From an uncultured Bacilli bacterium (lineage in GTDB: Bacteria > Bacillota_I > Bacilli_A > RF39 > UBA660): a stretch of 64,000 bases of DNA. Numbering within the stretch: the stretch's first letter is position 1; every line of letters begins with the position of its first letter. The position numbers and the translations under genes were made by a program. Below, piece by piece: positions 852 through 29,076 of this stretch. The DNA lies in the NCBI GenBank assembly GCA_934130005.1, contig CAKOXD010000001.1, positions 78,897-142,896 of the forward strand, in the 5' to 3' direction. The notes under the pieces were generated by a model that ran no database searches, had not been told where the DNA came from, and saw only the letters and a list, made by a program, of their open reading frames with translations.

Positions 852-2618
852 TTAATAATTTTTTAAAAATTCTTTTAATTTCATTGATATATTAGAAGGT
901 AATATTTTATTTAAATCATCAATGCTAGCTTCTTTTATATTCGAAATCGTTTTATATTTTTTTAGTAATTCTTTTTTTCTTTTTTCACCTATTCCATCTA
1001 CATTATCTAAAATACTTGAAAGTGCTCCTTTACTTCTTATATTTTTATGATAACTTATAGTAAAATTATGTACTTCATCTTGCATTCTTTCTAAATAATA
1101 GAATAAATTACTTTTCTTATCTACTTTTATTTCCTCTATCGGTTCATTAGCAAGTAATGCTTCTGTAGTATGTTTATTATCTTTTTTTAATCCTACTACT
1201 TTTATATTTAAGTTAAGACTTTTAATAACTTCACGTGCTACATTTATCTGCCCTATACCACCATCTACAATAATTAAATCTGGTCTTTCTAAATCATCTC
1301 TTAAAACTCTAAAATATCTTCTATATATAACTTCTCTCATTGTTCCATAATCATCATTTTTATCAGTTGTTATTTTATATTTTCTATATTCATTTTTAGC
1401 TTTTTCACCATTTTTAAATACAACCATACCAGATACATTAAAAGTTCCAAATAAATTAGAGTTATCAAATAATTCAATTCTATCTAATTTATCTAATTTT
1501 AAAACTTTCATTAATTCTTGATTAGCTAAATATGTTCTATTTTCATCTTTTTCTATTAATTCATAATCATTTTCTATTTTTATTTTAGCATTCTTATTTG
1601 CCATTTCTATCAATTTATTTTTAACACCTTTAATTGGTATTTTAACACTTGTATTTAAGTATTCTTCAAGTATTTTAGCATCAACTATATCTGGTACTAA
1701 TATTTCTTTTGGTACTAAAATATTTTTAGTATAAAAGCTTGCGATAAATCTTGTTAATTCTTCATTTATTTCATCTATCAATGGTATAGTCTTAGATATT
1801 CTTTCTTGAATTTTACCACTTCTTATAAAAAATATTTGTATACTTAAATATCCTTTAAATTCATAATATCCAATCACATCTCTATCTATACTATCATTTA
1901 TTTCTACTTTTTGTCTTGTAAGTGTTATTTCTATATAATCAAGCATTTCTTTTATTTCTAATGCTTTTTCATATTCCATCTTCTCACTATAATCATTCAT
2001 TTGTTTTTTTAATAATTCTTTTACATAATCATGGTTTCCTTTTAAAAATTCTATTATTTCTTTTTCCATTTGTCTTATTTTTTCTTCGTTATTTTTATAT
2101 TTACAATAACCTAAGCATTGTCCTATATGATAATATAAACATGGTTTTTTTTCATATGTTTTACATTTTCTTAAAGGATATATTCTATTAAGTAAATTTA
2201 CTGTAGAACGTGCAGCTGTTACATTAGGATATGGTCCATATAATCTATCTGTTTTTTTCTTTTTACCTAAATGTCTTACTATCATAAGCCTTGGTACTTC
2301 TTCATTTGTAAGTTCAATATATGGATAGCTTTTATCATCTCTAAGTAATATATTATATTTTGGATCATATTTTTTTATTAAATTTATTTCTAATATTAAT
2401 GATTCTGTTTCAGATTCTACTACTATAAATTCAAAATTTGTTATTTCACTTACTAATTTAGCTGTTTTTCCAGTATGAGTTCTATTAAAATATGAAGATA
2501 CTCTTCTTTTTAATTTTTTTGCCTTTCCAACATATATGACAACATTATCTTTATTCTTCATTAAGTAGCATCCTGGTTTATCAGGTAATAATTCTAATTT
2601 TTTCTTTATAAAATCCAT
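852..2618 (-). CDS. uvrC: Excinuclease ABC subunit C
   Basis: 588 aa. The N-terminal GIY-YIG motifs are present (PGCYLMKN...VIYVGKAKKLKRRVSSYF). Overall UvrC architecture with a C-terminal HhH region. Confidence 0.95.
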   Translation of the reverse strand: MDFIKKKLELLPDKPGCYLMKNKDNVVIYVGKAKKLKRRVSSYFNRTHTGKTAKLVSEITNFEFIVVESETESLILEINLIKKYDPKYNILLRDDKSYPYIELTNEEVPRLMIVRHLGKKKKTDRLYGPYPNVTAARSTVNLLNRIYPLRKCKTYEKKPCLYYHIGQCLGYCKYKNNEEKIRQMEKEIIEFLKGNHDYVKELLKKQMNDYSEKMEYEKALEIKEMLDYIEITLTRQKVEINDSIDRDVIGYYEFKGYLSIQIFFIRSGKIQERISKTIPLIDEINEELTRFIASFYTKNILVPKEILVPDIVDAKILEEYLNTSVKIPIKGVKNKLIEMANKNAKIKIENDYELIEKDENRTYLANQELMKVLKLDKLDRIELFDNSNLFGTFNVSGMVVFKNGEKAKNEYRKYKITTDKNDDYGTMREVIYRRYFRVLRDDLERPDLIIVDGGIGQINVAREVIKSLNLNIKVVGLKKDNKHTTEALLANEPIEEIKVDKKSNLFYYLERMQDEVHNFTISYHKNIRSKGALSSILDNVDGIGEKRKKELLKKYKTISNIKEASIDDLNKILPSNISMKLKEFLKNY

Positions 2619-2658
2619 AATATCACCTCTTAAATTATAACAAAAAAAAGATATTTTT

Positions 2659-2871
2659 TTATCTTATTTTTGAATTTTTCTTAATTTTCGTTTTAACACA
2701 TTCTAATATTTCTAATTTTTCTTCATTTGAAAGTATCTTTAATTCTTTATTATTTTCAGATATTTCTACAAGTCTTAACAAATTATTTATCTCTATTTGT
2801 TCTGATAAACTTGGAAATTCACGTTTTATTGCTATTTTTAAATTTTGTATTTGTTCTGCTTCAAAACTCAT
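2659..2871 (-). CDS. Small hypothetical protein
   Basis: 70-aa ORF on the same strand directly upstream of uvrC. No recognisable motif. Confidence 0.35.
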   Translation of the reverse strand: MSFEAEQIQNLKIAIKREFPSLSEQIEINNLLRLVEISENNKELKILSNEEKLEILECVKTKIKKNSKIR

Positions 2872-2951
2872 ATTATTTTTCCTTTCTTGACCAAATATTA
2901 TACATTTTTTTTATTTTTTGTCAATTATGTTATAATATATTTGGTGATTAA

Positions 2952-3536
2952 ATGAATACTATAAATAACAATGTAAATAATGAGTATTTAATAAACAAAT
3001 CTAAATTTATATGTTACCTAATTAAAGTAGATAATATAAGTGATATTGATTATAATTTAAATTATTTAAAACAAAAATATAATGACGCTACTCATATATG
3101 TTATGCCTATATTATTTCAAACATAAAAAGATTCAATGATGATAATGAACCATCTGGTACAGCAGGAATGCCTATTTTAAATGTATTGGAAAATAATAAT
3201 TTAAATTATGTTTTAGCTGTAGTAATAAGATATTTTGGTGGTATTAAATTAGGTGCTGGTGGTCTTGTTAGAGCTTATACTAAAAGTGTTACATTAGCTC
3301 TAGATAAGACAAGCATAAAAAAAATAAATAAATGTCTAAGGATAAGTATATGTTTTAATTATAATGAAACAAAATTAATTGATAACTTATTAAAAGATAT
3401 TAATATTATAGATAAAAAATATGATGATAATATAATATATACTTTTATTATTTTAAAAGAAGATTTTGATAAAATTAATAATTTATTATTACTAAATAAT
3501 ATTAAAATAATAAAAAAGGAAGAAATTTTATTTTGA
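2952..3536 (+). CDS. yigZ: YigZ/IMPACT family protein (UPF0029)
   Basis: Conserved block PSGTAGMPILNVL...VVIRYFGGIKLGAGGLVRAYT typical of the IMPACT/YigZ N-domain. Confidence 0.8.
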   Translation: MNTINNNVNNEYLINKSKFICYLIKVDNISDIDYNLNYLKQKYNDATHICYAYIISNIKRFNDDNEPSGTAGMPILNVLENNNLNYVLAVVIRYFGGIKLGAGGLVRAYTKSVTLALDKTSIKKINKCLRISICFNYNETKLIDNLLKDINIIDKKYDDNIIYTFIILKEDFDKINNLLLLNNIKIIKKEEILF

Positions 3537-12975: not shown

Positions 12976-13761
12976 TTATTTTTCCAATATAGTTTGCCCT
13001 ATTATGCAATCTATTCCTTCCATTTTAATTTTTAAAGGTGATAATCCTATTAAAATATTCTTTTTTAATTCTATCCCATCTATATTTACTTTATCTGGTT
13101 TTATACATTTAATTAAACTATTATTATTTATAGTATTTATTGGAACTAATATATAATTATCTATATCTTTTTCTTTTATAATATTTTTATTAATTATTAT
13201 TATTGGTAAATTTAAATATGGATCTTTTAATTTATTTCCTGTATCTAAATAAGAATTTAAATTTAATATTCTATCTTTATAATATATGTCTATTTTATGA
13301 TAATAAGAATAATTATTTTTTAATTCCTTATTTTGTTTTATATATAAATATAATATTAAAGGTGATATTATTAATAATAAAATAAAGTTTATACTAAGAC
13401 CATTATGATAAAAAACAATTCCTTCCTTTTTATATGAAAATTCTATATTAAGTAAATATAAAAATCCCCCTAATATAATACTTGAAATATATAAATATGA
13501 AAGATTTTTTATTGTATATTTTAAATTTTTATATCCAAATGTTATCAAAATCATAATAATACTTATAAATATTTTAAAAACAAATAATTCAATACTATTT
13601 ATTTTTATAAATAATAAAAGTACACTAAGTGATCCTATTAAACTTCCAATTATAAGTCTTATAATTTTAATATTTCTCTTTAAGGTGAGTGCCACTGTTA
13701 ACAATAATATTAAATCAAAAGAAAAATTAATAAATAATACTAAATCAAGATATATTTTCAT
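12976..13761 (-). CDS. spoIIGA: Sigma-E processing peptidase SpoIIGA-like
   Basis: The N-terminus is polytopic and membrane-spanning. The C-terminal domain carries an LDTGN aspartic-protease-like motif. It sits immediately upstream of the pro-sigma gene. Confidence 0.7.
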   Translation of the reverse strand: MKIYLDLVLFINFSFDLILLLTVALTLKRNIKIIRLIIGSLIGSLSVLLLFIKINSIELFVFKIFISIIMILITFGYKNLKYTIKNLSYLYISSIILGGFLYLLNIEFSYKKEGIVFYHNGLSINFILLLIISPLILYLYIKQNKELKNNYSYYHKIDIYYKDRILNLNSYLDTGNKLKDPYLNLPIIIINKNIIKEKDIDNYILVPINTINNNSLIKCIKPDKVNIDGIELKKNILIGLSPLKIKMEGIDCIIGQTILEK

Positions 13762-16820: not shown

Positions 16821-17177
16821 TTACCCTAACATATTATTAAGAAAATTAAATGTTGCCTCTAATCCTTTTGAAACAGTATTTCCTATTTTATCAGATATTT
16901 TATTTCCTATTTTTGATAATTTTGATTCATAATTATTACTTTCTTTTACAACATAATCATTAATATCTATATTTTTCCCTTCATCTACATCTTTTTCAAA
17001 TTGTTTTATTTTTTCCTCTGTTAGTACCTTTTTATTATGTTGTTCAAATTCATAATAACCAGTTGCTTCTGATATATAAAGAGCTGTAAATCCTACTAAT
17101 AATATTAAAAAGAATTTCCAAAATATTTTACTTATTATTTTTTTTACTTTTTCATTTTCCATTTTAACCCTCCACAT
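16821..17177 (-). CDS. yqxA: YqxA-like small membrane protein
   Basis: 118 aa with one N-terminal transmembrane segment. It overlaps the end of spoIIP by 14 nt, and its position between spoIIP and lepA matches Bacillus synteny. Confidence 0.45.
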   Translation of the reverse strand: MWRVKMENEKVKKIISKIFWKFFLILLVGFTALYISEATGYYEFEQHNKKVLTEEKIKQFEKDVDEGKNIDINDYVVKESNNYESKLSKIGNKISDKIGNTVSKGLEATFNFLNNMLG

Positions 17178-18138
17178 ATTCTTTTATTATATCTGACATT
17201 GCAATTGATGTATTCATAACTTCTTCAATAGTATTCTCTACTCCTCCAAATTCTATTAAAACAATATTTTTATTTAAATCTTGATTATAAATCCCATTTA
17301 CATATTTTCCTTCTTTTTTTAATATTCCTCTTGATAAGTTTGGATATTTTTTATTTATTATACTATTAAGTTTATTTGCCGTTTCTAAATTTTGTTTATA
17401 ATTCTTATGTTCTAATCCTACTACAAATAAAACTTTAGCATACTTTTTATTATTTATAACAACTGTTGTTGCTTTTTTACTTACAGAATCTCTGTGCAAA
17501 TCAATTATTAATTTTAAATTTGGGTATTTTTTTAATGTATCTTTTATATAATATCTACTTGCTTTATAACTATTACTATAATCCCATCCATTTGTATTTA
17601 AAAAATCTTTTATATTACCAGTCTCTACTATAGTATTTATTTTTTTATTATTAAGATTTTCTCTTAATATATATGATGCCATCATAACATTTGGTGTTAT
17701 ATTATAATCTTCATATATTTTTTTATTATAACTTTCAAGTTGATGTGTATTATATATATACACTAAAGGATTATCAACTTCCTCTTTTTTTGGATCTTCT
17801 ATATATTTACTATTTTCATTTTTTTCTTGTTTATTATCTGATGCCGTAGTACTATACATCACTTTTATAGAATCATCAGTTTTATAATTAAAATTATTTT
17901 CTAATATATTAACAGGATCTTTTAAATCTAAATTCAATACTAATTTTATGGTTTTGTTTAATATACTATTATAATCTTTGATATATAATTCATAATATTT
18001 TTTGTCATTTAATAATAACTTAATAAATTCTTCATTGTTATTAGTAAGTTTTATTTTTATATATATACTATTTACAACTTCAAGAATTAAAAATATTATT
18101 ATAATATAACTTGTATATTTAAATATTCTTTTTTTCAT
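17164..18138 (-). CDS. spoIIP: Stage II sporulation protein P
   Basis: An N-terminal signal anchor is present. Conserved SpoIIP blocks include VYIYNTHQLESY, LIIDLHRDS and VLIEFGGVENT. Confidence 0.8.
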   Translation of the reverse strand: MKKRIFKYTSYIIIIFLILEVVNSIYIKIKLTNNNEEFIKLLLNDKKYYELYIKDYNSILNKTIKLVLNLDLKDPVNILENNFNYKTDDSIKVMYSTTASDNKQEKNENSKYIEDPKKEEVDNPLVYIYNTHQLESYNKKIYEDYNITPNVMMASYILRENLNNKKINTIVETGNIKDFLNTNGWDYSNSYKASRYYIKDTLKKYPNLKLIIDLHRDSVSKKATTVVINNKKYAKVLFVVGLEHKNYKQNLETANKLNSIINKKYPNLSRGILKKEGKYVNGIYNQDLNKNIVLIEFGGVENTIEEVMNTSIAMSDIIKEYVEG

Positions 18139-18919: not shown

Positions 18920-19894
18920 TTATTCTAGTATTTTTCCTATTATACTTGTTTTATCTTGTAAACCATTTAAATATTCTATTGTTTTCATTTTCTTTTTGCC
19001 TTCTATTTGCAATTCAGTAATAACAATTTCACCATTACTTACTTTTACCCCAATTCCGTCTTCATAAATATTTAAAATTTGTCCATTGATTTTAAAAGGA
19101 TCAGCATAACTAGATATTCTAGAAGACCATATTTTCATTCTTTTACCTTCAAATATAGCATATGCACCTGGCCATGAATTAAGTCCTCTTATTTGATTAT
19201 ATACTTGTTTTGTAGTTTTATTAAAATCAATCTTTTCGTCTTCTTTACTTATGTTTTTAGCATATGTTGCTTCATCATTATTTTGAGGTGTTCTCTTAGC
19301 TGTACCATTTATTATACTAGGTAATACTTCAAGTAATAAATCAGTTCCTAAAGCACTTAATTTATCATGTAATGTAGAAGCAGTATCAGTGTCTTCTATT
19401 TCTATTTCTCTTTCTTCAATTATATCTCCTTCATCCATTCTAGGATTCATATGCATAATTGTAATTCCTGTTTTTTTATACCCGTCTATAATAGCATGGT
19501 GTATAGGTGCTCCTCCTCTTAATTTTGGAAGAAGTGATGCATGTACATTAATACATCCATATTTAGGATATACTAAAAGTTCTCTTGGTATTATTTGACC
19601 ATATGCACATGTAATTATCAAATTTGGATGTAATGAAACTACATCTTGCCATTCTTCCTTTATTTTTTCTGGCTGTAACACTAAGATAAGATTATCGTTT
19701 GCAAATTTTTTTACTGGAGATGCTGTTAAAACACCATTTCTACCAACTTTTTTATCTGGTTGTGTAACAACAGCCCTTACATTATAGTTTTTAGTTAATG
19801 CTTCAAGTATTGGTACACTAAATTCTGGTGTTCCCATAAAAACAATTCTAACTTCTTCATCTACATTAATTTTATCTATATCATAATTTTCCAT
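18920..19894 (-). CDS. fmt: Methionyl-tRNA formyltransferase
   Basis: N-terminal RIVFMGTPEFSVPIL. A formyltransferase core with HASLLP is present, plus the Fmt C-terminal domain. Confidence 0.9.
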   Translation of the reverse strand: MENYDIDKINVDEEVRIVFMGTPEFSVPILEALTKNYNVRAVVTQPDKKVGRNGVLTASPVKKFANDNLILVLQPEKIKEEWQDVVSLHPNLIITCAYGQIIPRELLVYPKYGCINVHASLLPKLRGGAPIHHAIIDGYKKTGITIMHMNPRMDEGDIIEEREIEIEDTDTASTLHDKLSALGTDLLLEVLPSIINGTAKRTPQNNDEATYAKNISKEDEKIDFNKTTKQVYNQIRGLNSWPGAYAIFEGKRMKIWSSRISSYADPFKINGQILNIYEDGIGVKVSNGEIVITELQIEGKKKMKTIEYLNGLQDKTSIIGKILE

Positions 19895-19986
19895 TTTATC
19901 ACCATATATATTCTATCATAAAACACAAAAAAACAAAAGGGAGACTTTTGTTTAATCGAGAATATTACTCGAGGGTATATTTATAT

Positions 19987-20063
19987 TGGTGACCAGTACG
20001 AGATTCGAACTCGTGAATGCTGCCGTGAAAGGGCAGTGTGTTAAGCCACTTCACCAACTGGCC
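19987..20063 (-). tRNA. tRNA-Glu (anticodon UUC)
   Basis: Cloverleaf GGCCAGTTGGTGAAGTGGC...CTGCC-CTTTCAC-GGCAG...TTCGAATC...ACTGGTCACCA. CCA is encoded. It resembles Bacillus tRNA-Glu. Confidence 0.85.
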
Positions 20064-20073
20064 AAAAAAAATA

Positions 20074-20149
20074 TGGCGCCTAATGTAGGACTCGAACCTA
20101 CGACCTGTCGGTTAACAGCCGAATGCTCTACCAACTGAGCTAATTAGGC
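20074..20149 (-). tRNA. tRNA-Asn (anticodon GUU)
   Basis: GCCTAATTAGCTCAGTTGGTAGAGC...anticodon loop CTGTTAA...GGTTCGAGTCC...ATTAGGCGCCA. Confidence 0.85.
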
Positions 20150-20268
20150 AACCCCATATCAGTTTGTCTTAATCACTAAGACTATTTCATTATATACTAG
20201 ATTAAAGCATTTGGCAATACCTTTTTTAAAATTTTTTTATTTTTTTTATTTTATAGAAAAAGTACATA

Positions 20269-22014
20269 CTAATTTCTTATTTTAATATGTACTTCTCTTA
20301 ATTGTTTTTCATCAATAATGCTTGGAGAACCCATCATTTTATCTTCTCCACTAGCTAATGCTGGGAATGTAATTACTTCTCTTAAATTTGTTTCATCTTT
20401 TAAAAGCATTAACATTCTCTCAATTCCAGGAGCCATTCCTGCATGTGGTGGTGCTCCAAATTGGAAAGCATTATATAAAGCTCCAAATCTTTCTTTTACT
20501 ACTTCTTTATCATATCCTACTAAGCTAAATGCTTTTTCTAGGCACTCTACATCATGATTACGAACAGCTCCACTTGCCATTTCATATCCATTACATACAA
20601 AGTCAAATTGATATGCTTTAATATCATCTAAATTATCACTTTCTAAAGCCTTAATTCCACCTTGTGGCATACTAAATGGATTATGTCCAAAATCATATTT
20701 CTTTTCTTCTTCATTATATTCAAACATAGGGAAATCATTAACTATGCAGAATTCATATCTGTTTTTATCTATTAAATCTAATTTATTTCCTAAATGAGTT
20801 CTAATTAACCCTGCATTTTTAATAGCAACATTTTTATCTCTATCAGCTATAAAGAAGATAACTGAATTTTCTTTTAATGAAGCTTTTTCAATTAAATCTT
20901 TTTTATTTTCTTCTGTTAAGAATTTATCAATGGGTCCTTTAAATGTATTATCTTCTAATAGTGATAAATATCCAATACCAGGCATTCCGATTGTTTTAGC
21001 ATAATCTACTATTTCATTAAACCAACTATTTGATTTTAAAGCAATATCATCTACCTTAATACCTTTTACATTAACTCCTCTAAATGGTTTAAATTCAGAT
21101 TCTTTAAAGATTTCACTTAAATCTATTATTGTAAGTGGATTTCTTAAATCAGGTTTATCAGTTCCATATTTTTCCATAGCTTCACTATAAGGTATTCTTC
21201 TAAATGGTCTTTTTGAAACTTCTTTTTTGCTAAAGTGAGTAAATGTATCATAGAAAATTTCTTCACCTACATTATACACATCATCTTCTTCAACAAAACT
21301 CATTTCAAAATCTAATTGATAAAATTCTAGTGCTCTATCAGCTCTTGTATCTTCATCTCTAAAACAAGGTGCGATTTGATAGTATTTTGAGAAACCTGAA
21401 CACATTAATAATTGTTTAAATTGTTGAGGTGCTTGTGGTAATGCATAAAATTTTCCTTTGAATTTACGTGATGGAATTATAAAATCTCTTGCTCCTTCTG
21501 GACTTGATGCTGTCATAATTGGTGTTTGAACTTCAGTAAATTCTAGTGAATCCATTTTGTTTCTTAGATATTTTAAAAGTTCTGCTCTAAATTTAGTCAT
21601 ATTATGTACTTTTTCATTTCTAAGATCTAAGTATCTATATTTTAATCTAACTTCTTCATTTACATCTTTAGATGTCATAATTTCAAATGGAAGATTATGT
21701 TTTGCTTTTCCAAGTACTTCTAGACTATCTACAAGTATTTCTATTTTTCCAGTTTTAATTCTTTCATTATAATCATCTTCACTTCTTTTTCTTACAGTTC
21801 CACTAAGAGTTATTGCTGATTCTTTTGTAAGTCCTTCAAATATAGAATCATCATTACTTACTACTTGAACTGTTCCATATTCATCTCTAACATCTACAAA
21901 TATAACTCCACCATGATCTCTTATATTTTCAATCCATCCAGCAATTCTAACTTTTTTACTGTCCATTTCTTCAGTTATTTGACCACAATATATTGTACGA
22001 TATTTATTTTCCAT
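20269..22014 (-). CDS. aspS: Aspartate--tRNA ligase, bacterial type with GAD insertion
   Basis: 581 aa. An N-terminal OB fold is present. Class II motifs FRDEDTRADR and GAPPHAGMAPGIERM are present. Confidence 0.95.
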   Translation of the reverse strand: MENKYRTIYCGQITEEMDSKKVRIAGWIENIRDHGGVIFVDVRDEYGTVQVVSNDDSIFEGLTKESAITLSGTVRKRSEDDYNERIKTGKIEILVDSLEVLGKAKHNLPFEIMTSKDVNEEVRLKYRYLDLRNEKVHNMTKFRAELLKYLRNKMDSLEFTEVQTPIMTASSPEGARDFIIPSRKFKGKFYALPQAPQQFKQLLMCSGFSKYYQIAPCFRDEDTRADRALEFYQLDFEMSFVEEDDVYNVGEEIFYDTFTHFSKKEVSKRPFRRIPYSEAMEKYGTDKPDLRNPLTIIDLSEIFKESEFKPFRGVNVKGIKVDDIALKSNSWFNEIVDYAKTIGMPGIGYLSLLEDNTFKGPIDKFLTEENKKDLIEKASLKENSVIFFIADRDKNVAIKNAGLIRTHLGNKLDLIDKNRYEFCIVNDFPMFEYNEEEKKYDFGHNPFSMPQGGIKALESDNLDDIKAYQFDFVCNGYEMASGAVRNHDVECLEKAFSLVGYDKEVVKERFGALYNAFQFGAPPHAGMAPGIERMLMLLKDETNLREVITFPALASGEDKMMGSPSIIDEKQLREVHIKIRN

Positions 22015-22016
22015 AA

Positions 22017-23480
22017 TTACCTCTTTTCTATTTCTTCTATGATCATACTTCTTGTCATAGCAGGATTTGCTTGTCCTCTTGTTTTTTTCATTACTTGACC
22101 TACTAAGAAATCAACTATATTTGTTCTACCATTTTTATATTGTTCTATAGAAGCTGGTTGTTCAGTTAATACTTCATTAATAACACTTAATATAGCACCT
22201 TCATCACTATTTTGTTTTAAACCTTTTTCTTCTACTATTTTAGTTGGTTCTTTTTCTTCAGTTAATGCAATATATAATACCTCTTTTGCTTGTTTGCTTG
22301 AAATATCTTTATTATCTACTAATTTGATTAAATCAACTAACATATTTGGTCTTAAAAATATATCATTTATATTTAAATCAAATTTATTTAAATGACCTAG
22401 TATTACACTTGTAATCCAGTTTGAACTTGCTTTTGGATTTGCACCTAATTTAATTGTTTCTTCATAATAATCAGCTACATCTTTTTCTTTTACAAGTATT
22501 TTAGCATCATATTCACTTATTCCATAACTATTTATATATTTTTCTTTTCTTTCATTTGCAAGTTCAGGAATAGATTTTCTAATTTCATCTAACCATTCTT
22601 TTGTTATTTTATATTTTGGAATATTTGGTTCTACAAAGTATTTATAATCAATAGCATCTACTTTACTTCTCATACGTATTGTAGTACCAGATTCTTCATC
22701 CCATCTTCTTGTTTCTTGAACTACAACTTCGTCATAATTTCCATCTTCTTTTGCATCCATTTGTCTTTCTATTTCAAAATTAATTGCATCTCTTACTCCA
22801 CCAAATGAATTGACATTTTTTATTTCAACTTTTGTTCCCCAATTATTAATATCTTCTGGATCTAAATTTTTATCCATTATTGAAACATTAACATCACATC
22901 TTATTTGACCTTTTTTGCTATCAGCTTCACTTATTCCAGCATATTGATAAATACTTCTCATAGTCTCTAAAAAAGATACTGCTTCATCTGCTGAATGAAA
23001 GCATGGTTCAGTAACAAGTTCAAGAAGTGGAACACCAGCTCTATTATAGTTAATTAATGTAGATGAACCTATATGTTCACTTGCTGCTGCATCTTCTTCT
23101 AGATGAAGATTATTAATCAAAGCAGTTTTCATCTCTCCATTACATTCATATTCAAGTTTTCCATATATACCAACTGGTGCTGGTTTAGTTTCTTGAGTAA
23201 TCTGAAATCCTTTTGGAAGATCTGGATAATAGTAATTTTTTCTTTCAAAATACATATATTCTGGTTGTTTACAATTTAAAATCATAGATGCCATAAGAGA
23301 TTTTTTTACTGCTTCTTTATTAACAACTGGAAGTGTTCCAGGAAACGCCATATCAACTGGTCTTATATTTGAGTTAGGAAGTTCTGTATACCCATTTCTA
23401 GCACTTGAAAATACTTTTGATTTAGTTTCACTAATCTCACAGTGCATTTCAAGTCCAATCATTACTAAATAGTTATCCAT
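22017..23480 (-). CDS. gatB: Asp/Glu-tRNA amidotransferase subunit B
   Basis: 487 aa. GatB motifs IGLEMHCE and NRAGVPLLE are present. Confidence 0.95.
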   Translation of the reverse strand: MDNYLVMIGLEMHCEISETKSKVFSSARNGYTELPNSNIRPVDMAFPGTLPVVNKEAVKKSLMASMILNCKQPEYMYFERKNYYYPDLPKGFQITQETKPAPVGIYGKLEYECNGEMKTALINNLHLEEDAAASEHIGSSTLINYNRAGVPLLELVTEPCFHSADEAVSFLETMRSIYQYAGISEADSKKGQIRCDVNVSIMDKNLDPEDINNWGTKVEIKNVNSFGGVRDAINFEIERQMDAKEDGNYDEVVVQETRRWDEESGTTIRMRSKVDAIDYKYFVEPNIPKYKITKEWLDEIRKSIPELANERKEKYINSYGISEYDAKILVKEKDVADYYEETIKLGANPKASSNWITSVILGHLNKFDLNINDIFLRPNMLVDLIKLVDNKDISSKQAKEVLYIALTEEKEPTKIVEEKGLKQNSDEGAILSVINEVLTEQPASIEQYKNGRTNIVDFLVGQVMKKTRGQANPAMTRSMIIEEIEKR

Positions 23481-24934
23481 TATTTAACCTCCTTTGCTAT
23501 TTGGTTTTTATAGTTCATTTTACTTTCTAGTGCATACGCAATATTAAGTACTGTTTGATCATTATAACAATTACCAGTAATATTTAAAGCAACTGGAAGA
23601 TTATCTATAAATCCATCTGGTATTGTAATTGATGGAAATCCACCAAAGTTTCCAACTTGTAAATGTTCTTCTAGGGCTGCTGTATTATCATCTAGTATAT
23701 CTTTTGATCCATCTAAATGTTTTGCAGGTCCACTACCAACTGGTAATATTACAGCATCATATTTTTGATAAAGCTTCTTCCATTCATCAACTAATAATCT
23801 TCTAACCCTTTGTGCATTATAGAAATATCTATCTTTATTTTGCTTTTGAAGTACATATGAACCAATTACAAATCTTCTTTTAATAAGTGGTGAAAATCCT
23901 TTTGTTCTATGATTTTTCATTTGTTCAATATATGTATTTCCTTCTCCCCTTGGACCAAAAATAAATCCTGTTAAATTAGACATATTGCTTGTAGCTTCAG
24001 CACATGAAATAACTACATAAACACTAGGTAGTGCATTAAGAAGTGTTTTATCAACAGATACTGCGTCAACTTCCATTCCAAGTTCTTTGCAAAGTTCTAA
24101 TTTCTCTTTGAAATTTTCTAAATGTTCTTTAAGCTCCTTACTTGCATTTGGATAATTTTCTATATCACATATTTCTTTTATATAACATAATTTTTTACCT
24201 TTAACATCTTTATTTAAATCTTTATATAAATTTATTTTGCTTGAATCCCAACTAGTCATATCATATTTGTCGATTCCTTTCATATTATCAACAACAATTG
24301 CAGCATCTTCTACACATCTTGATAATACACCTAAATGATCTAGGCTTGATGCAAAAGCAAATAATCCATATCTAGAAATCATTCCATATGTTGGTTTATA
24401 TCCGACAATTCCACAATATGCAGCCGGTTTTCTAATAGAGTCACCTGTATCTGATCCTGTTGCATAAGGATAGACTCCAGCAGCTACAGCACAAGCAGAT
24501 CCAGCACTTGATCCAGCACACATACGAGTTTTATCCCATGGGTTTCTAACAATACCAGTATGACCAGTTGTTCCAGTTCCTCCCATTCCAAATTCATCCA
24601 TTACAGTTTTATTAACCATAACAGCATTTGCACGTTTTAAATTTTCTATTGCAGTTGCATCAAAAAATGGTACATAATCTTTTAATGTATTTGATGAACC
24701 TGTAGATAAAATACCTTTGGTTGAATAATTATCTTTAACTCCATAAGGAATTCCGGATAATAAGTTATCTGTGACAATATCACCTTTAGCATCATCTAAA
24801 ATAGTAACAAATGCATTATATTTATCTTGTACTTCATGAGATTTTTTAAGTGATTCTTTTACAAGTTCATCACTAGTTACTTTTTTATTTACTAAATCTT
24901 CATGTAATTCTTTAATTGTTTTTTCCATATACAT
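23480..24934 (-). CDS. gatA: Asp/Glu-tRNA amidotransferase subunit A (amidase)
   Basis: Amidase signature GGSSAGSA and the GxSxG region are present. The start is likely the ATG at 24932-24934, 1 nt after the gatC stop and with an AAGGTGGTGGG ribosome-binding site. The ORF track extends to 24985. Confidence 0.9.
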   Translation of the reverse strand: MYMEKTIKELHEDLVNKKVTSDELVKESLKKSHEVQDKYNAFVTILDDAKGDIVTDNLLSGIPYGVKDNYSTKGILSTGSSNTLKDYVPFFDATAIENLKRANAVMVNKTVMDEFGMGGTGTTGHTGIVRNPWDKTRMCAGSSAGSACAVAAGVYPYATGSDTGDSIRKPAAYCGIVGYKPTYGMISRYGLFAFASSLDHLGVLSRCVEDAAIVVDNMKGIDKYDMTSWDSSKINLYKDLNKDVKGKKLCYIKEICDIENYPNASKELKEHLENFKEKLELCKELGMEVDAVSVDKTLLNALPSVYVVISCAEATSNMSNLTGFIFGPRGEGNTYIEQMKNHRTKGFSPLIKRRFVIGSYVLQKQNKDRYFYNAQRVRRLLVDEWKKLYQKYDAVILPVGSGPAKHLDGSKDILDDNTAALEEHLQVGNFGGFPSITIPDGFIDNLPVALNITGNCYNDQTVLNIAYALESKMNYKNQIAKEVK

Positions 24935-24935
24935 A

Positions 24936-25229
24936 TTATCCCACCACCTTTGGTACTTCAACTTCTCTATCTGTACAAACATCACAGTTAGAAAGTAAAT
25001 CTTCTATATCAATTGATTCTTCTACTTCATCTTCTCTAAGTTCAAACTCAAAATCATCTAAACAATGTGTCATTGGTTCTACTTGACTTATATTTGGTAT
25101 CTCGTTTATTAAATCGATATTTTTATCAATTATTTCAAATTCATCTAATACCATTTGATTTTCTTCTTCTGTTAAACCGATTAAAAGCTTTTCTGCATAA
25201 TCGTCTACCATTTCTTTAGTAAATTTCAT
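24936..25229 (-). CDS. gatC: Asp/Glu-tRNA amidotransferase subunit C
   Basis: 97 aa, acidic. It is first in a gatCAB arrangement. Confidence 0.8.
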   Translation of the reverse strand: MKFTKEMVDDYAEKLLIGLTEEENQMVLDEFEIIDKNIDLINEIPNISQVEPMTHCLDDFEFELREDEVEESIDIEDLLSNCDVCTDREVEVPKVVG

Positions 25230-25245
25230 ATAATCACCCTTTCAA

Positions 25246-25457
25246 TATAAAAAAGGATAGTACCTAAGGAGTGCTTATGCACGGTACCATCCTTTTATTT
25301 TCTTAATTAAATAACGGTATCAACCGAATATTCCTACTAATTTCAGAATATCAACTCCATGGTGTTTTTCATATTAAGCTTTTCTGTTAGTTCTCACTAT
25401 CCTAACTCACTTTTAGACAGTTTTTAATATTACTCTCCACTTCCCTGTTTTTAAAAC
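25246..25457 (-). ncRNA. T-box riboswitch leader of the gatCAB-aspS operon
   Basis: On the minus strand, the T-box sequence AAAAGGATGGTACCGTG (25280-25296) overlaps a 10-bp terminator helix, GGATGGTACC...GGTACTATCC, followed by a T-run. Stem I is upstream and carries AGUGAG motifs. Candidate specifier triplets AAC or GAU lie in the GUGAGAACUAACAG segment. Confidence 0.65.
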
Positions 25458-25463
25458 ATAATT

Positions 25464-25492
25464 ATTGTATCAATTTTATTATAAAATGTCAA
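25464..25492 (-). promoter_or_regulatory. Consensus sigma-A promoter for the T-box/gatCAB transcript
   Basis: On the minus strand, TTGACA (25487-25492) is followed by a 17-nt spacer and then TACAAT (25464-25469). Confidence 0.6.
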
Positions 25493-25493
25493 T

Positions 25494-26549
25494 TTATTTT
25501 AGATTTATTGTTTTCAAAATATTATTATAATAATTTGTACAAATTTTATTATTGTCTTCACTTACTACTCTATATTCAAAAACATAAACTTTATTATCTT
25601 TTGTAGTTGTTAAAACATAATTTGTTCCAAATGAATTTTGATATATAAAATTATCCCATTGGATATTATTTATAGTATCAACTTTTACATCATTTACTTT
25701 ATAGTATTCTGCCATTTCCTTTATTAGTTTATTAGAATTCGTATACTGAAGAACACTATTTAATGAAAATTTACAATCATTTATTCCATCATTATATTCA
25801 TATTCAAGACCTGAATTATCATTCATAAATCCTTCTTTAAAATTATTGGGAATTGTAATACTTAATTTATCTAATATGTTTATACTTGTATCATACGTTA
25901 GACTACCATCATATTTTTTTGAAGTATTATATTCTATATTAATATTATTTGTATTTTCTATATTATTATTAATATCATTTTTATTTAAGTTATCTTTAAT
26001 TACTTTAAATACTGACATATTTATAGCACTAACTAATATAGAAATTAAAATAATCATTAAAATCATTTTTATAAAACTCGTTCCACCTTTTTTATGACAT
26101 ATTTTTATTAACTCTTCTTCACTTTTATTAATTTTTTTTATTTTCATTATCTCTTTATAACTTTTTTCTAAGTAATATTTATTTATAAATATTCCAAGTA
26201 GTACTGATATTATAAATGTTATAAAAATTGTTATATAAATAATTATATTATTATTAAAACAATTATAAGCAGTTAAAAGTAAAGTTATTATAAAACATAT
26301 TATAAATCCTAGTCCATACATTTTTCTATATAATAAATAATATCCATTAAATAAAAAAGCTGGTATTGAAAATTTTCCTTTTAATATTTTTTCTTGATTC
26401 TTTTTTATATATGCAATTAATAAATTTGTATCTGATACTTCATATTTAACTATATTATTATTTGTATCTATATTACTTTGAACATTTATATTTTCTATAT
26501 TATTTTGATCATTTTTAATATTTACATCATTATTTATACTGTTATTCAT
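25494..26549 (-). CDS. Hypothetical membrane protein (DUF2628-like region)
   Basis: 351 aa. An Asn-rich low-complexity N-terminus is followed by a PAFLFNGYYLLYRKMY motif, then 3-4 transmembrane segments and a C-terminal domain. Confidence 0.45.
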   Translation of the reverse strand: MNNSINNDVNIKNDQNNIENINVQSNIDTNNNIVKYEVSDTNLLIAYIKKNQEKILKGKFSIPAFLFNGYYLLYRKMYGLGFIICFIITLLLTAYNCFNNNIIIYITIFITFIISVLLGIFINKYYLEKSYKEIMKIKKINKSEEELIKICHKKGGTSFIKMILMIILISILVSAINMSVFKVIKDNLNKNDINNNIENTNNINIEYNTSKKYDGSLTYDTSINILDKLSITIPNNFKEGFMNDNSGLEYEYNDGINDCKFSLNSVLQYTNSNKLIKEMAEYYKVNDVKVDTINNIQWDNFIYQNSFGTNYVLTTTKDNKVYVFEYRVVSEDNNKICTNYYNNILKTINLK

Positions 26550-26623: not shown

Positions 26624-27232
26624 TCAAAAGATTTGTTTCATTCTATATTTATTTATTATTCTTTGTTCTTTTTTAAGAATTTTTTCTTTGTTACTTTTCA
26701 ATTCTTGAAAAGCTTTTTTCTCATTAAGTGTTAAAATACTTTCTAACATGGTATCTTGTTCTATTTTTTCTAAATCTCTAAATATATCAAATTGAGACTC
26801 ATTTTTTTCTTCTTTTGTTATATTATATTTTTCTTTTATAATATCATAATATTTATCTATTTCTATTATATTGTCATCTATTTTTATTAAATTTATTTTG
26901 CTTAATGCATTATACATTTGTGAAGCTAATATAATTTTTTTAGGTAAAAATTCTATAAATTCACTTCTTAATGATACTATATCAAATCCATCTTTTAATA
27001 TATAATATTTTTTACCATTTTCATCTTTACTTAAAAAATATATTGCATTACTTTCATTTACTTCAAATGAAAAATCAATTGTATTATTTAATCTTTCTAA
27101 ATTATAGTCAATTGCTTCTATAAATTTATAAATACTATTTGCTGTTAATACCATATTTGATTCACTACTATATATATAATTATATAAAAGAGCTAATGAA
27201 ATAATATCTTTATTAATTAGTTTACTTTTCAT
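26624..27232 (-). CDS. Hypothetical protein
   Basis: 202-aa ORF with no motif recognised. Confidence 0.4.
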   Translation of the reverse strand: MKSKLINKDIISLALLYNYIYSSESNMVLTANSIYKFIEAIDYNLERLNNTIDFSFEVNESNAIYFLSKDENGKKYYILKDGFDIVSLRSEFIEFLPKKIILASQMYNALSKINLIKIDDNIIEIDKYYDIIKEKYNITKEEKNESQFDIFRDLEKIEQDTMLESILTLNEKKAFQELKSNKEKILKKEQRIINKYRMKQIF

Positions 27233-27261: not shown

Positions 27262-27338
27262 TGGTGATCCGTATGGGATTCGGACCCATGAATGTAGCCT
27301 TGAGAGGGCTATGTGTTAAACCACTTCACCAACGGACC
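27262..27338 (-). tRNA. tRNA-Glu (anticodon CUC)
   Basis: GGTCCGTTGGTGAAGTGGTTTAACAC...TAGCC-CTCTCAA-GGCTA...GGTCCGAATCC...ACGGATCACCA. It lies directly downstream of gltX. Confidence 0.8.
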
Positions 27339-27423: not shown

Positions 27424-29076
27424 TTAAATTAAACTTATTCTCTTCTTTATTCTTTCTTTTCCTAGTAATTTTAATATTTCATATAAATCAGGAGTCATAC
27501 TTGAAGTTGTAACAGCAACTCTAATTACTGTTGAGACATCCGCAACATTTCCTTTAAATTTATTGGGATTTTCTTTGTATTCTTTCATATTTGATGCATA
27601 GCCTAATTCTTCCGATAGTTCTTTTACCTTATTAAACCAAGTATCTTTATCATCATCGTCACTATAATATTTATTTATATATGTATTTAATATCAATTTT
27701 ATTTCTTCTTTATCTTTTATATTTAAAAAATCATATTCTTTTTCTTCTTTTTCAAATAATTCATCATACATATACCATATTTGTGGTTTTATGGCTTTAT
27801 AATTTTCATAATCTTTTCTAGGCTTTTTTTGTTCTCTTTCTATATTTAAAATGTTTGTTGTATATTCTTCATATTTAGAGATTAAATCAAAGAATTCTTT
27901 ATCATATTTTTTTGACCAATTATACAAATCACTATATACTTCTTTAGCACTCATTTTGCTTATAATATTTTTAGATATATTATTTAGTTTTTCTATATCA
28001 TATAAAGCCCCACCGCTAGATGACATTTTTTTTGGTGAAAAAGGAAATTCTAGATATGATTTTTCTGGATTTTTATCATGCCATTCTTCATAATTAGAAT
28101 TAATTATTGTCATTAATGATTCAATAACGGCTAAAGTTGGATATCCATTTTCTTCATAATAACTCATTGTTGCTTCTGGATCTTTTCTTTTACTTAATTT
28201 TCTTACACTATTTCCTTCTTTTTTAACAATTAATGGTGTATGAATGTATTTAGGAGGCTTTGCATCAAATGCTTTAAAAAGTTCTATATGAATTGGTACT
28301 GATGGTAACCATTCTTCCCCTCTTACAACATGTGTTGTTCCCATTAAATAGTCATCTACAAAATGAGCAAAATGATATGTTGGAAGTCTATCACTTGATT
28401 TCATTATTACTATGTCTTGATCATTTTCTGGAAGTGATAATGTACCTCTTACTAAATCTTCAAGAAAAAATCTTTTTTCATTATCCCCAAGTGATTTAAA
28501 TCTAATAACATATTCTTCTCCATTTTTTATTTTTTCTATTTTTTCTTCTATACTTAAATTTCTACATTTAGCATATCTTCCATAATATCCAATTCTTGCT
28601 TTATACTTTTCTTGTTTTTTTCTTATTTCTTCTACTTCTTCTTTTGTACAAAAACAAGGATAGGCTCTATCAATTTCGATTAAATATTTAATAAATGTAT
28701 GATATATTTCTTTTCTTTCACTTTGAATATATGGACCATAATTTCCTACTATTTTACCTTCATATTCGTATTCATCAGGTTTTACACCATAATGATTTAA
28801 TGTTTTCATTATAAGTTCAACAGCTTCTTTTACTTCTCTTTTTTGATCTGTATCTTCATTTCTTAAATAAAATATACCATTACTATTTTTAGCTAAAACG
28901 TAATCAATTATTGCTTGATAAAATCCACCTAAATGCATAAAACCTGTTGGGGATGGAGCAAAACGAGTTACTTTTTCTCCTTCATTTAAATTTCTTTTTG
29001 GATAAATATTTTTATAATCTTCTATTGTTTTTGTAACGTCTGGAAATATTATATTAGCTAAATCTTTATTTGTCAT
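27424..29076 (-). CDS. gltX: Glutamate--tRNA ligase
   Basis: Class I HIGH-region motif RFAPSPTGFMHLGG and a KLSKRK (KMSKS) motif are present. 550 aa. Confidence 0.85.
   Translation of the reverse strand: MTNKDLANIIFPDVTKTIEDYKNIYPKRNLNEGEKVTRFAPSPTGFMHLGGFYQAIIDYVLAKNSNGIFYLRNEDTDQKREVKEAVELIMKTLNHYGVKPDEYEYEGKIVGNYGPYIQSERKEIYHTFIKYLIEIDRAYPCFCTKEEVEEIRKKQEKYKARIGYYGRYAKCRNLSIEEKIEKIKNGEEYVIRFKSLGDNEKRFFLEDLVRGTLSLPENDQDIVIMKSSDRLPTYHFAHFVDDYLMGTTHVVRGEEWLPSVPIHIELFKAFDAKPPKYIHTPLIVKKEGNSVRKLSKRKDPEATMSYYEENGYPTLAVIESLMTIINSNYEEWHDKNPEKSYLEFPFSPKKMSSSGGALYDIEKLNNISKNIISKMSAKEVYSDLYNWSKKYDKEFFDLISKYEEYTTNILNIEREQKKPRKDYENYKAIKPQIWYMYDELFEKEEKEYDFLNIKDKEEIKLILNTYINKYYSDDDDKDTWFNKVKELSEELGYASNMKEYKENPNKFKGNVADVSTVIRVAVTTSSMTPDLYEILKLLGKERIKKRISLI

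Follow-up and report, generated by a model that had tools for sequence, protein, structure and literature searches.

We describe an asparagine-specific T-box leader and the operon that it precedes in a 64,000-nucleotide (nt) stretch of DNA (the window) from an uncultured Bacilli bacterium of the RF39 lineage (assembly GCA_934130005.1, contig CAKOXD010000001.1, positions 78,897 to 142,896). The leader is very probably a transcription-attenuating T-box specific for tRNA-Asn. The reading of the locus that we favor, with a probability of roughly 0.6, is that this attenuator controls gatC-gatA-gatB-aspS and raises the indirect route to Asn-tRNA(Asn), in which aspartyl-tRNA synthetase (AspRS) would form Asp-tRNA(Asn) and the amidotransferase GatCAB would amidate it. 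All elements named in a preliminary description of this DNA are present on the minus strand, namely a promoter, the T-box leader, gatC-gatA-gatB-aspS and a pair of tRNA genes. Taken alone, the operon adds one more case of a regulatory design demonstrated before in Clostridium acetobutylicum. Most of the interest stems from tRNA-Asn's first base pair, G1-C72, which conflicts with the published recognition rule for GatCAB, and from the arrangement of T-boxes and tRNA genes in related bacteria. For comparison, 80 related loci (designated L001, L002 and so on) were collected from genomes of uncultured gut Bacilli via GatB, and 34 leaders were aligned.

The elements of the operon are as follows.

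25464..25492, minus strand: operon promoter TTGACA-17-TACAAT, TG-extended (TTGACA at 25492..25487, TACAAT at 25469..25464)
25264..25454, minus strand: T-box leader RNA with Stem I, Stem II, Stem IIA/B and antiterminator (RF00230)
25354..25448, minus strand: Stem I with GA/K-turn, specifier loop AGAGUA...GAAAAACA, AG bulge AGUGA and distal loop GAUAGUGAGAA
25364..25366, minus strand: specifier codon AAC (Asn), followed by the purine A25363 and the helix CCAU (RF00230 alignment)
25328..25351, minus strand: Stem II, AUAUUCU/GGAAUAU, 7 pairs, with a GAA...AGUA loop
25266..25294, minus strand: antiterminator, AAGGA/UCCUU and GUGC/GCAC around the 7-nt bulge UGGUACC (fold, -7.7 kcal/mol)
25249..25296, minus strand: intrinsic terminator, 14-bp helix AAAAGGAUGGUACC/GGUACUAUCCUUUU followed by the U-run UUUUUU (fold)
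24936..25229, minus strand: gatC (TIGR00135, 46.7 bits, cutoff 47.1, E 3e-12)
23480..24934, minus strand: gatA (TIGR00132, 433 bits), ATG at 24934
22017..23480, minus strand: gatB (NF004012, 564 bits, cutoff 338)
20269..22014, minus strand: aspS, bacterial-type AspRS of 581 amino acids (NF001750, 728 bits, cutoff 443)

The T-box leader and its specifier codon

The leader matches the Rfam T-box model RF00230 over the full model positions 1-219 with 102.4 bits (E 1.8e-21), above the gathering score of 93, as the preliminary description had anticipated. Homologous leaders in the relatives score 94-147 bits against the same model. Stem III is absent, its model positions being deleted in the alignment. 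The AG bulge AGUGA and the distal loop GAUAGUGAGAA align to AGAGA and the distal loop of the model, which form the tRNA-elbow platform. RNAalifold on the unguided alignment recovered Stem II and not Stem I, and Stem I was tested with an explicit structure. Across the leaders, 79% of Stem I cells pair, a share that drops to 46% or less once the 3' partners are slid, and helix 5 is paired in 97% of cells. Both sides change in 17 of 20 Stem I pairs, and none of 500 shuffles reached the covariation score. Stem II shows many compensatory changes among the 34 leaders.

The 3' side of the specifier loop, GAAAAACA (25370..25363), consists of the S-turn GAA, one spacer base, AAC and a purine, and the whole S-turn arrangement AGAGUA...GAA-A-AAC-A-CCAU is seen as the T-box model expects. 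TBDB locates the specifier at nt 2-4 of the specifier bulge, counted from its 3' end, and the position of AAC in the window obeys this rule. AACA is invariant in 34/34 leaders despite a mean column identity of 50%, and the specifier is AAC in every T-box read among the relatives. The base before AAC varies (A, U or G) and is A in the window. The covariance-model alignment, the invariance among the 34 leaders and the covarying flanking helices thus make the specifier unambiguous: it is AAC (Asn). Of the two codons considered earlier, AAC or GAU, the former is retained, and the supposed ambiguity disappears along with GAU; the codon read by the model is that of one of the two amino acids expected for the operon. 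The segments GUGAGAACUAACAG and GGAUAGUGAG, in which the specifier had been sought, both belong to the AG bulge/distal loop of Stem I. A GAU (Asp) specifier was also rejected, as GGAUAG and GAACUAAC form the distal loop and stem of Stem I. So was an additional specificity for Glu in the window, where the base preceding AAC is A and not G. Overlapping GAA/AAC codons are thus absent here; G precedes AAC in L011, L017, L035 and L039-L048.

The switch

The terminator has a free energy of -22.9 kcal/mol (z -4.54), and 0/200 shuffles were equally stable. For the antiterminator, -7.7 kcal/mol was computed with the 3' arm of the terminator left out. UGGU in its bulge (25289..25286) is the pairing partner of NCCA at the tRNA 3' end. 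The conserved T-box sequence AAAAGGAUGGUACCGUG doubles as the 5' arm of the 14-bp terminator, in line with the overlap between T-box sequence and a strong terminator helix noted beforehand. The resulting topology is unusual in that the small antiterminator hairpin sits inside the terminator loop. The window and L001-L005 are distinguished from the other leaders by this use of the T-box sequence and by the lack of Stem III, and the terminators of L006-L053 use the antiterminator 3' strand in the usual way. The window shares its unusual terminator design with the Asn T-box that precedes asnS in L065. UGGU forms only a wobble pair with G73 of tRNA-Asn, compared with a Watson-Crick pair for the UGGC of many relatives; TBDB accepts a G-U wobble at the N of UGGN.

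In the mechanism that we propose, the polymerase would start about 7 nt past the TACAAT box, and the nascent Stem I would offer AAC (25366..25364) to the anticodon GUU of tRNA-Asn. If this tRNA is uncharged, its G73-C-C-A would pair with UGGU and stabilize the weak antiterminator, resulting in read-through into gatCAB-aspS. If it is aminoacylated, the 14-bp terminator would fold and transcription would halt ahead of gatC. This response to tRNA charging is predicted from the architecture of the RNA. Its purpose would most likely be to raise AspRS, for Asp-tRNA(Asn), and GatCAB, for the amidation, when uncharged tRNA-Asn accumulates. As a T-box senses only acylation of the 3' end, the AspRS step would be reported directly and the amidation step indirectly.

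Operon, promoter and genes

The operon promoter has 11/12 consensus matches and is the top-scoring site within 19800..25700, where such a promoter had been described. The region is not enriched in promoter-like sites as a class (21, compared with 37.9 in shuffles), and therefore the position of this promoter carries more weight than the consensus match itself. From the likely start at about 25457 to the ATG of gatC at 25229 the leader measures about 228 nt, somewhat more than the 210 nt or so estimated previously. GatC and GatA are the best family matches and lie slightly below the NCBIfam equivalog cutoffs. GatB has its best match in the PDB in the Aquifex protein (E 7.5e-131) and is a bacterial GatB by sequence. 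The gene order and tight junctions of the preliminary description are borne out by the family matches and by the spacing: a 1-nt gap between gatC and gatA, a 1-nt overlap between gatA and gatB and a 2-nt gap between gatB and aspS. An internal gatB promoter, TTTAAA-16-TATAAT at 23588..23561, was noted and set aside, as it lies off the gene boundary and promoter-like matches in this AT-rich region are rarer than in shuffles.

Hence an Asn specifier, AspRS and GatCAB occur within one operon, as in the transamidation operon of the C. acetobutylicum type, and the amidotransferase that the indirect Asn-tRNA(Asn) pathway requires is encoded. Each operon gene is seen in one copy in the 64 kb, and a search of the window found no paralogue of AspRS, AsnRS or LysRS.

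A separate tRNA unit downstream of aspS

Downstream of the operon, the following elements were identified.

20257..20297, minus strand: hairpin overlapping the aspS stop, then UUUUUCU (-14.7 kcal/mol, z -4.97)
20189..20217, minus strand: promoter of the tRNA pair, TTGCCA-17-TATAAT, with an A-rich tract upstream (11/12)
20166..20182, minus strand: small hairpin GUCUUA-GUGAU-UAAGAC at the 5' end of the predicted pre-tRNA leader (fold/comparison)
20074..20149, minus strand: tRNA-Asn(GUU) with G1-C72, G73, 8-nt D-loop and encoded CCA (73.2 bits)
19987..20063, minus strand: tRNA-Glu(UUC) with G1-C72, A73 and encoded CCA (61.2 bits)
19920..19953, minus strand: terminator of the tRNA unit, AAACAAAAG-UCUCC-CUUUUGUUU followed by UUUUGUGUUUU (fold of 19990..19905)

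The tRNA-Asn gene starts 119 nt past the aspS stop and is followed after 10 nt by tRNA-Glu and then by fmt. The hairpin at the aspS stop is likely a terminator or the 3' end of the operon mRNA; it is present in L001 and absent in L002 and L003. The promoter of the tRNA pair lies 40 nt upstream of tRNA-Asn and is conserved in L001, L002, L003, L006, L008, L025, L026, L031, L034 and L053. Moreover, the promoter block stays with the tRNA pair in loci in which 0.6-1.3 kb separates the pair from the synthetase gene (L001, L008, L034, L053). Given the conserved promoter of its own, the aspS-end hairpin with its U-run and a terminator of its own, the tRNA pair is a separate transcription unit, which is not primarily under T-box control in this genome. 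The earlier account of the tRNAs as following the operon is thus accurate for their adjacency, which is recurrent among the relatives, but the pair is not just an operon tail.

Alternatively, tRNA-Asn and tRNA-Glu might mainly form the 3' end of one long T-box-controlled mRNA, in which case the switch would set the supply of its own ligand. We consider this improbable for the window. The tRNAs do lie close to aspS on the same strand, no hairpin separates them from aspS in L002 and L003, and tRNA-Asn genes are found inside the T-box transcript in many relatives. However, a long mRNA has to be reconciled with a stable hairpin and U-run at the end of aspS, with an 11/12 promoter and A-tract just before tRNA-Asn, and with the conservation of a promoter block that remains attached to the tRNA pair across the separations mentioned above. 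Some read-through from aspS into the tRNAs is possible in L002 and L003, since the aspS hairpin is missing there, and any such read-through would add to the expression of the tRNA unit.

A 6-bp hairpin after the -10 box of the tRNA promoter is also kept in L002, L003, L025, L031, L034 and L053. Its retention despite differing sequences points to structural conservation at the 5' end of the tRNA precursor. In L001, about 1.3 kb of extra DNA with an open reading frame (ORF) separates the aspS hairpin from the tRNA promoter (L001 10210-11567, corresponding to 20150-20268 in the window), and the locus is otherwise near-identical to the window (GatB 99%, AspS 100%).

T-boxes, tRNA genes and synthetase genes in related loci

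The related loci fall into several architectures, in which gatCAB is constant and the synthetase partner varies.

Window, L001-L003, L006, L008, L025, L026, L031: T-box, gatCAB, aspS, separately promoted tRNA-Asn/tRNA-Glu
L007, L011-L019, L021-L023, L027-L029, L032: T-box, 1-5 tRNA-Asn, gatCAB, (asnS), aspS
L034, L036, L038, L053, L060: T-box, (tRNA-Asn), gatCAB, asnS, no aspS following
L039-L048: T-box, aspS, gatCAB
L065 group: T-box, asnS, aspS, gatCAB
L035: T-box, archaeal-type Asp-tRNA(Asn) ligase, asnS, gatCAB
L037, L040, L046, L050, L054, L055, L062, L078: no T-box at gathering score

The gene asnS, for asparaginyl-tRNA synthetase (AsnRS; 580-630 bits), takes varied positions in these operons.

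L021 5232-6626; L029 4800-6173; L034 5139-6518; L053 8461-9834: asnS
L036 8461-9840; L035 3844-5211; L078 3860-5227; L065 about 2093-3480: asnS

In L035 and L078, an archaeal-type aspartate--tRNA(Asn) ligase (433-444 bits) lies immediately upstream of asnS and gatCAB. L030 (1499-7806) combines a T-box with hisS, a divergent aspS (40% identity) and gatCAB.

In 11 loci, full T-box leaders (94-147 bits, Rfam) precede tRNA-Asn genes, mostly by 15-40 nt. The following ten have an AAC T-box, 1-3 tRNA-Asn genes and then gatC.

L007 188-696; L016 1725-2114; L017 4882-5188; L018 150-507; L022 4767-5189
L023 2719-3141; L029 1067-1481; L032 143-559; L036 4790-5195; L015 4733-5189

The gap between leader and tRNA in L015 is about 160 nt and holds a promoter-like site. 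L021 has tandem Asn T-boxes on a single transcript, arranged as follows.

L021 1010-2022: promoter (1010-1038), T-box 1 (1044-1290), five tRNA-Asn genes (1326-1741), T-box 2 (1752-1973)

The L021 promoter is a perfect match to the consensus, T-box 2 starts 11 nt past the last tRNA, and gatCAB-asnS-aspS follow. No promoter-like site above 9/12 was found between the promoter-proximal elements and T-box 2. In these tRNA-first relatives, the riboswitch would gate the transcription of its own ligand tRNA, as judged from the gene order. A sensor that controls the synthesis of its own ligand differs in its feedback behavior from one that controls an enzyme. The T-box surveys consulted name synthetases, biosynthetic genes and transporters as cargo and do not mention tRNA genes, and targeted searches of the accessible literature turned up no account of T-box-controlled tRNA genes.

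Apart from L021, the tRNA-first loci share a conserved hairpin, ACAAGUCC-N3-4-GGACUUGU followed by U6-7, which lies past the last tRNA-Asn and immediately ahead of the gatC ribosome-binding site.

L011 5205-5224; L016 2125-2145; also L012, L014, L017, L018, L019, L022, L028, L029, L032, L036, L038: pre-gatC hairpin

This hairpin leaves no space for a promoter. It could act as a leaky terminator, could serve in processing or stability, or could be what is left of a second T-box terminator.

Which pathway does the T-box serve?

We regard the indirect Asn route as what the T-box probably serves. AAC is kept in operons that have aspS and gatCAB without asnS, as in the window, L001-L010 and L039-L048 (in the order aspS-gatCAB). 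In L035, the AAC T-box precedes the archaeal-type aspartate--tRNA(Asn) ligase (433 bits, cutoff 353), and asnS and gatCAB follow. Throughout the clade, tRNA-Asn genes are physically tied to the operon. Furthermore, the window AspRS has the motif RDHGGVIF of the Asp/Asn ligases of P. aeruginosa, M. tuberculosis and M. smegmatis, compared with RDLGSLIF in E. coli, and its anticodon-binding domain is closest to that of the P. aeruginosa Asp/Asn ligase. A second region, RSED, corresponds neither to RPEG of non-discriminating enzymes nor to RDEK of E. coli, and the NCBIfam name is plain aspartate--tRNA ligase. The tRNA-Asn D-loop, AGUUGGUA, has 8 nt and is without the extra nucleotide 20A, a tRNA-Asp antideterminant, as judged on tRNA-Asn alone. 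What the sequences show is the architecture of the RNA, the specifier, the identities of the genes and the separate tRNA promoter, along with their conservation in relatives; that this AspRS would charge tRNA-Asn and that this GatCAB would amidate the product with its G1-C72 pair is inferred.

The difficulty lies in the acceptor stem. The window tRNA-Asn reads GCCUAAU...AUUAGGC-G-CCA and has G1-C72 and G73. Because it carries G1-C72 instead of U1-A72, it should not be a GatCAB substrate by the published rule. The preliminary description had placed the operon next to its substrate tRNA; the substrate status is unproven in view of G1-C72 in tRNA-Asn and of asnS in the homologous operon of many relatives.

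Several points weigh against the indirect route as the target of control. G1-C72 is present in the window tRNA-Asn and in 56/56 tRNA-Asn genes of the related loci; the tRNA-Gln genes keep U1-A72. For GatCAB of Neisseria meningitidis, U1-A72 is the single positive determinant, and the change to G1-C72 costs 102-fold in kcat/KM. GatCAB of S. aureus prefers U1-A72 via a 3-10 turn in GatB that is lacking in archaeal enzymes, and the window GatB keeps this segment at bacterial length (ADSKKG, compared with VKMEEG in S. aureus). A survey of 547 genera found U1-A72 in every one of the 186 that have GatCAB and lack both AsnRS and GlnRS, and the surveyed genera without U1-A72 all encode AsnRS. Mycoplasma, Erysipelothrix and Acholeplasma, the nearest cultured relatives, lack U1-A72 and all encode AsnRS and AsnA. 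With asnS inside the same T-box operon in many relatives, the Asn specifier could originate with asnS. Finally, if the gatCAB copy is the sole one, Gln-tRNA(Gln) needs it too, and an Asn-only switch would be an odd sole control.

The 3-10 turn of GatB adjoins the tRNA's first base pair. An archaeal-type deletion of the turn, as an explanation for a G1-C72 substrate, was looked for and not found, the segment having bacterial length. S. aureus, Aquifex, Thermotoga and Pseudomonas have an anchoring Met in this segment, followed by Glu; all 81 GatB proteins of the clade have Ser, Thr, Asn or Ala in place of the Met and Lys or Arg in place of the Glu. Since Thermus GatB has Pro at the Met position and yet uses U1-A72, these substitutions are only a lead. 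The motif D-[S/T]-[K/R]-K-G occupies the turn in all 81 proteins, at about residues 186-215 of the window GatB (22830-22930, minus strand); the solved bacterial enzymes have x-M-E-[E/K]-G there. Most GatB proteins of the clade also have a 5-7-residue insertion, DKNLDPEDINNW, just past the strand that follows the turn.

Two well-supported rules clash at this locus, namely that T-box specifiers report the pathway under control and that bacterial GatCAB needs U1-A72, and one of them must bend. Either GatCAB of the clade accepts G1-C72 tRNA-Asn, which would be a new mode of tRNA recognition in a bacterial amidotransferase, or the Asn T-box was inherited from an asnS operon, which would make AAC a long-lived specifier on an operon that it no longer logically serves. 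We judge the inheritance to be unlikely. It implies that the T-box first served asnS in a mixed operon of asnS, aspS and gatCAB in various orders, and that asnS was dropped from the operon, or relocated, in the window lineage. GatCAB would then work on Glu-tRNA(Gln) only, AspRS would be discriminating, AsnRS would be encoded outside the window, and the control of gatCAB-aspS by tRNA-Asn charging would have persisted as a tolerated leftover, not as a design tailored to the pathway. G1-C72 in tRNA-Asn together with U1-A72 in tRNA-Gln is indeed the published pattern for genomes with AsnRS for Asn and a Gln-only GatCAB, and the AsnRS pattern of the nearest cultured relatives agrees with it. Inheritance would also account for asnS in the homologous operon of L021, L029, L032, L034, L036, L053, L035, L078 and L065, for the unusual terminator design that the asnS T-box of L065 shares with the window, and for the GatB turn retained by length. 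However, AAC is invariant even in the more than 20 leaders whose operon has no asnS, whereas a leftover specifier could drift or vanish, as apparently happened in the T-box-less L037, L040, L046, L050 and L055. The constant cargo of the T-box across the architectures is gatCAB and not asnS. Moreover, the archaeal-type Asp-tRNA(Asn) ligase beside gatCAB in L035 and L078 argues that the clade carries out tRNA-dependent Asn synthesis, and the window AspRS shares RDHGGVIF with Asp/Asn ligases, though RSED fits neither class.

It is also conceivable, but very unlikely, that the T-box senses a second tRNA, as AAA (Lys) can be read in the A-rich loop GAAAAACA one base upstream of AAC. UGGU pairs Watson-Crick with A73 tRNAs such as tRNA-Glu and tRNA-Lys and by wobble with tRNA-Asn, and at this locus tRNA-Glu has A73 and tRNA-Asn G73. 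Precedents are the two-codon Asn/Glu T-box of C. acetobutylicum and the lysK T-box of B. cereus, which has the specifier AAA and responds in part to tRNA-Asn; overlapping GAA/AAC codons occur in the relatives L011, L017, L035 and L039-L048. In the window, however, the A before AAC yields no GAA by a one-base shift, and the sole GAA is the S-turn, 5 nt upstream. The base before AAC varies freely, without the constraint of a second codon, and no functional reason ties Lys to the operon.

Returning to the indirect route, we tentatively suggest, at somewhat below even odds, that GatCAB of the clade has escaped the U1-A72 rule and that the Asn T-box is the hub of an Asn-tRNA module, gating its own ligand in many members; the tRNA of the window would have been relocated behind aspS with its own promoter.

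Gene neighborhood

The region around the operon contains the following features.

27424..29076, minus strand: gltX (GluRS), 309.6 bits, about 35 extra N-terminal residues (family match)
27262..27338, minus strand: tRNA-Glu(CUC), the less common anticodon, 2 kb upstream of the T-box operon
25494-26549 and 26624-27232, minus strand: two ORFs without family match, between tRNA-Glu(CUC) and the T-box promoter
12976-13761 and 17164-18138, minus strand: homologues of spoIIGA and spoIIP, nearby

Both synthetase partners of GatCAB, gltX and aspS, are thus clustered with gatCAB. No T-box was found upstream of gltX. One of the two ORFs without family match, 351 amino acids long, has a low-complexity sequence rich in asparagine; its identity to L001 is just 42%, across part of the ORF, compared with 96-100% for the flanking genes. 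Given the homologues of spoIIP and spoIIGA nearby, the organism appears to be a spore-forming Firmicute from a small-genome gut lineage, labelled Bacilli, Erysipelotrichaceae or Tenericutes depending on the record, that keeps sporulation genes.

Comparison with known systems

In C. acetobutylicum, a T-box that responds to tRNA-Asn controls the transamidation pathway, and its overlapping GAA/AAC codons also bind tRNA-Glu. The operon is reported to hold the whole pathway, AspRS included. The presence of aspS, initially taken as a difference of the window operon from that of C. acetobutylicum, is thus a feature of both. This fits an analysis in which the C. acetobutylicum T-box lies on one of three aspS genes and none lies directly upstream of the amidotransferase genes (Wels, 2008). 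Thus, both low-GC Firmicutes have an AAC-specifier T-box over an operon of AspRS and GatCAB. They differ in gene order, which is gatCAB-aspS in the window, whereas the C. acetobutylicum T-box lies on aspS as in the relatives L039-L048. The window loop reads A-AAC, in contrast to the Clostridium GAA/AAC that confers dual Asn/Glu specificity. C. acetobutylicum has U1-A72 in tRNA-Asn and a genome with three aspS, two gatCAB and one asnS, whereas the window has G1-C72 and one copy per gene in 64 kb. In addition, the window leader is without Stem III and its terminator sequesters the T-box sequence.

Canonical T-boxes (B. subtilis tyrS and glyQS; RF00230) share with the window the Stem I K-turn, S-turn, specifier loop, AG bulge and distal loop, as well as Stem II, Stem IIA/B, an antiterminator with a 7-nt UGGN bulge and a competing intrinsic terminator. 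Unlike them, the window leader has no Stem III, the 5' arm of its terminator consists of the antiterminator 5' strand and bulge, and its cargo comprises an amidotransferase and the synthetase for Asp while Asn is sensed.

The bacterial indirect route of Neisseria, Helicobacter, Pseudomonas, Thermus and Staphylococcus uses the same two enzymes, and the window resembles it in the tRNA-Asn D-loop without 20A and in the U1-A72 of tRNA-Gln. It departs from this route in G1-C72, which lowers amidation about 100-fold in the tested systems and is known only in AsnRS-bearing genera. Archaeal GatCAB (Methanothermobacter thermautotrophicus), on the other hand, acts on G1-C72 tRNA-Asn and ignores the first base pair, and this tolerance is what the enzyme of the clade would need. 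Unlike archaeal GatB, which has no 3-10 turn, the window GatB has a turn of bacterial length in which the residues differ.

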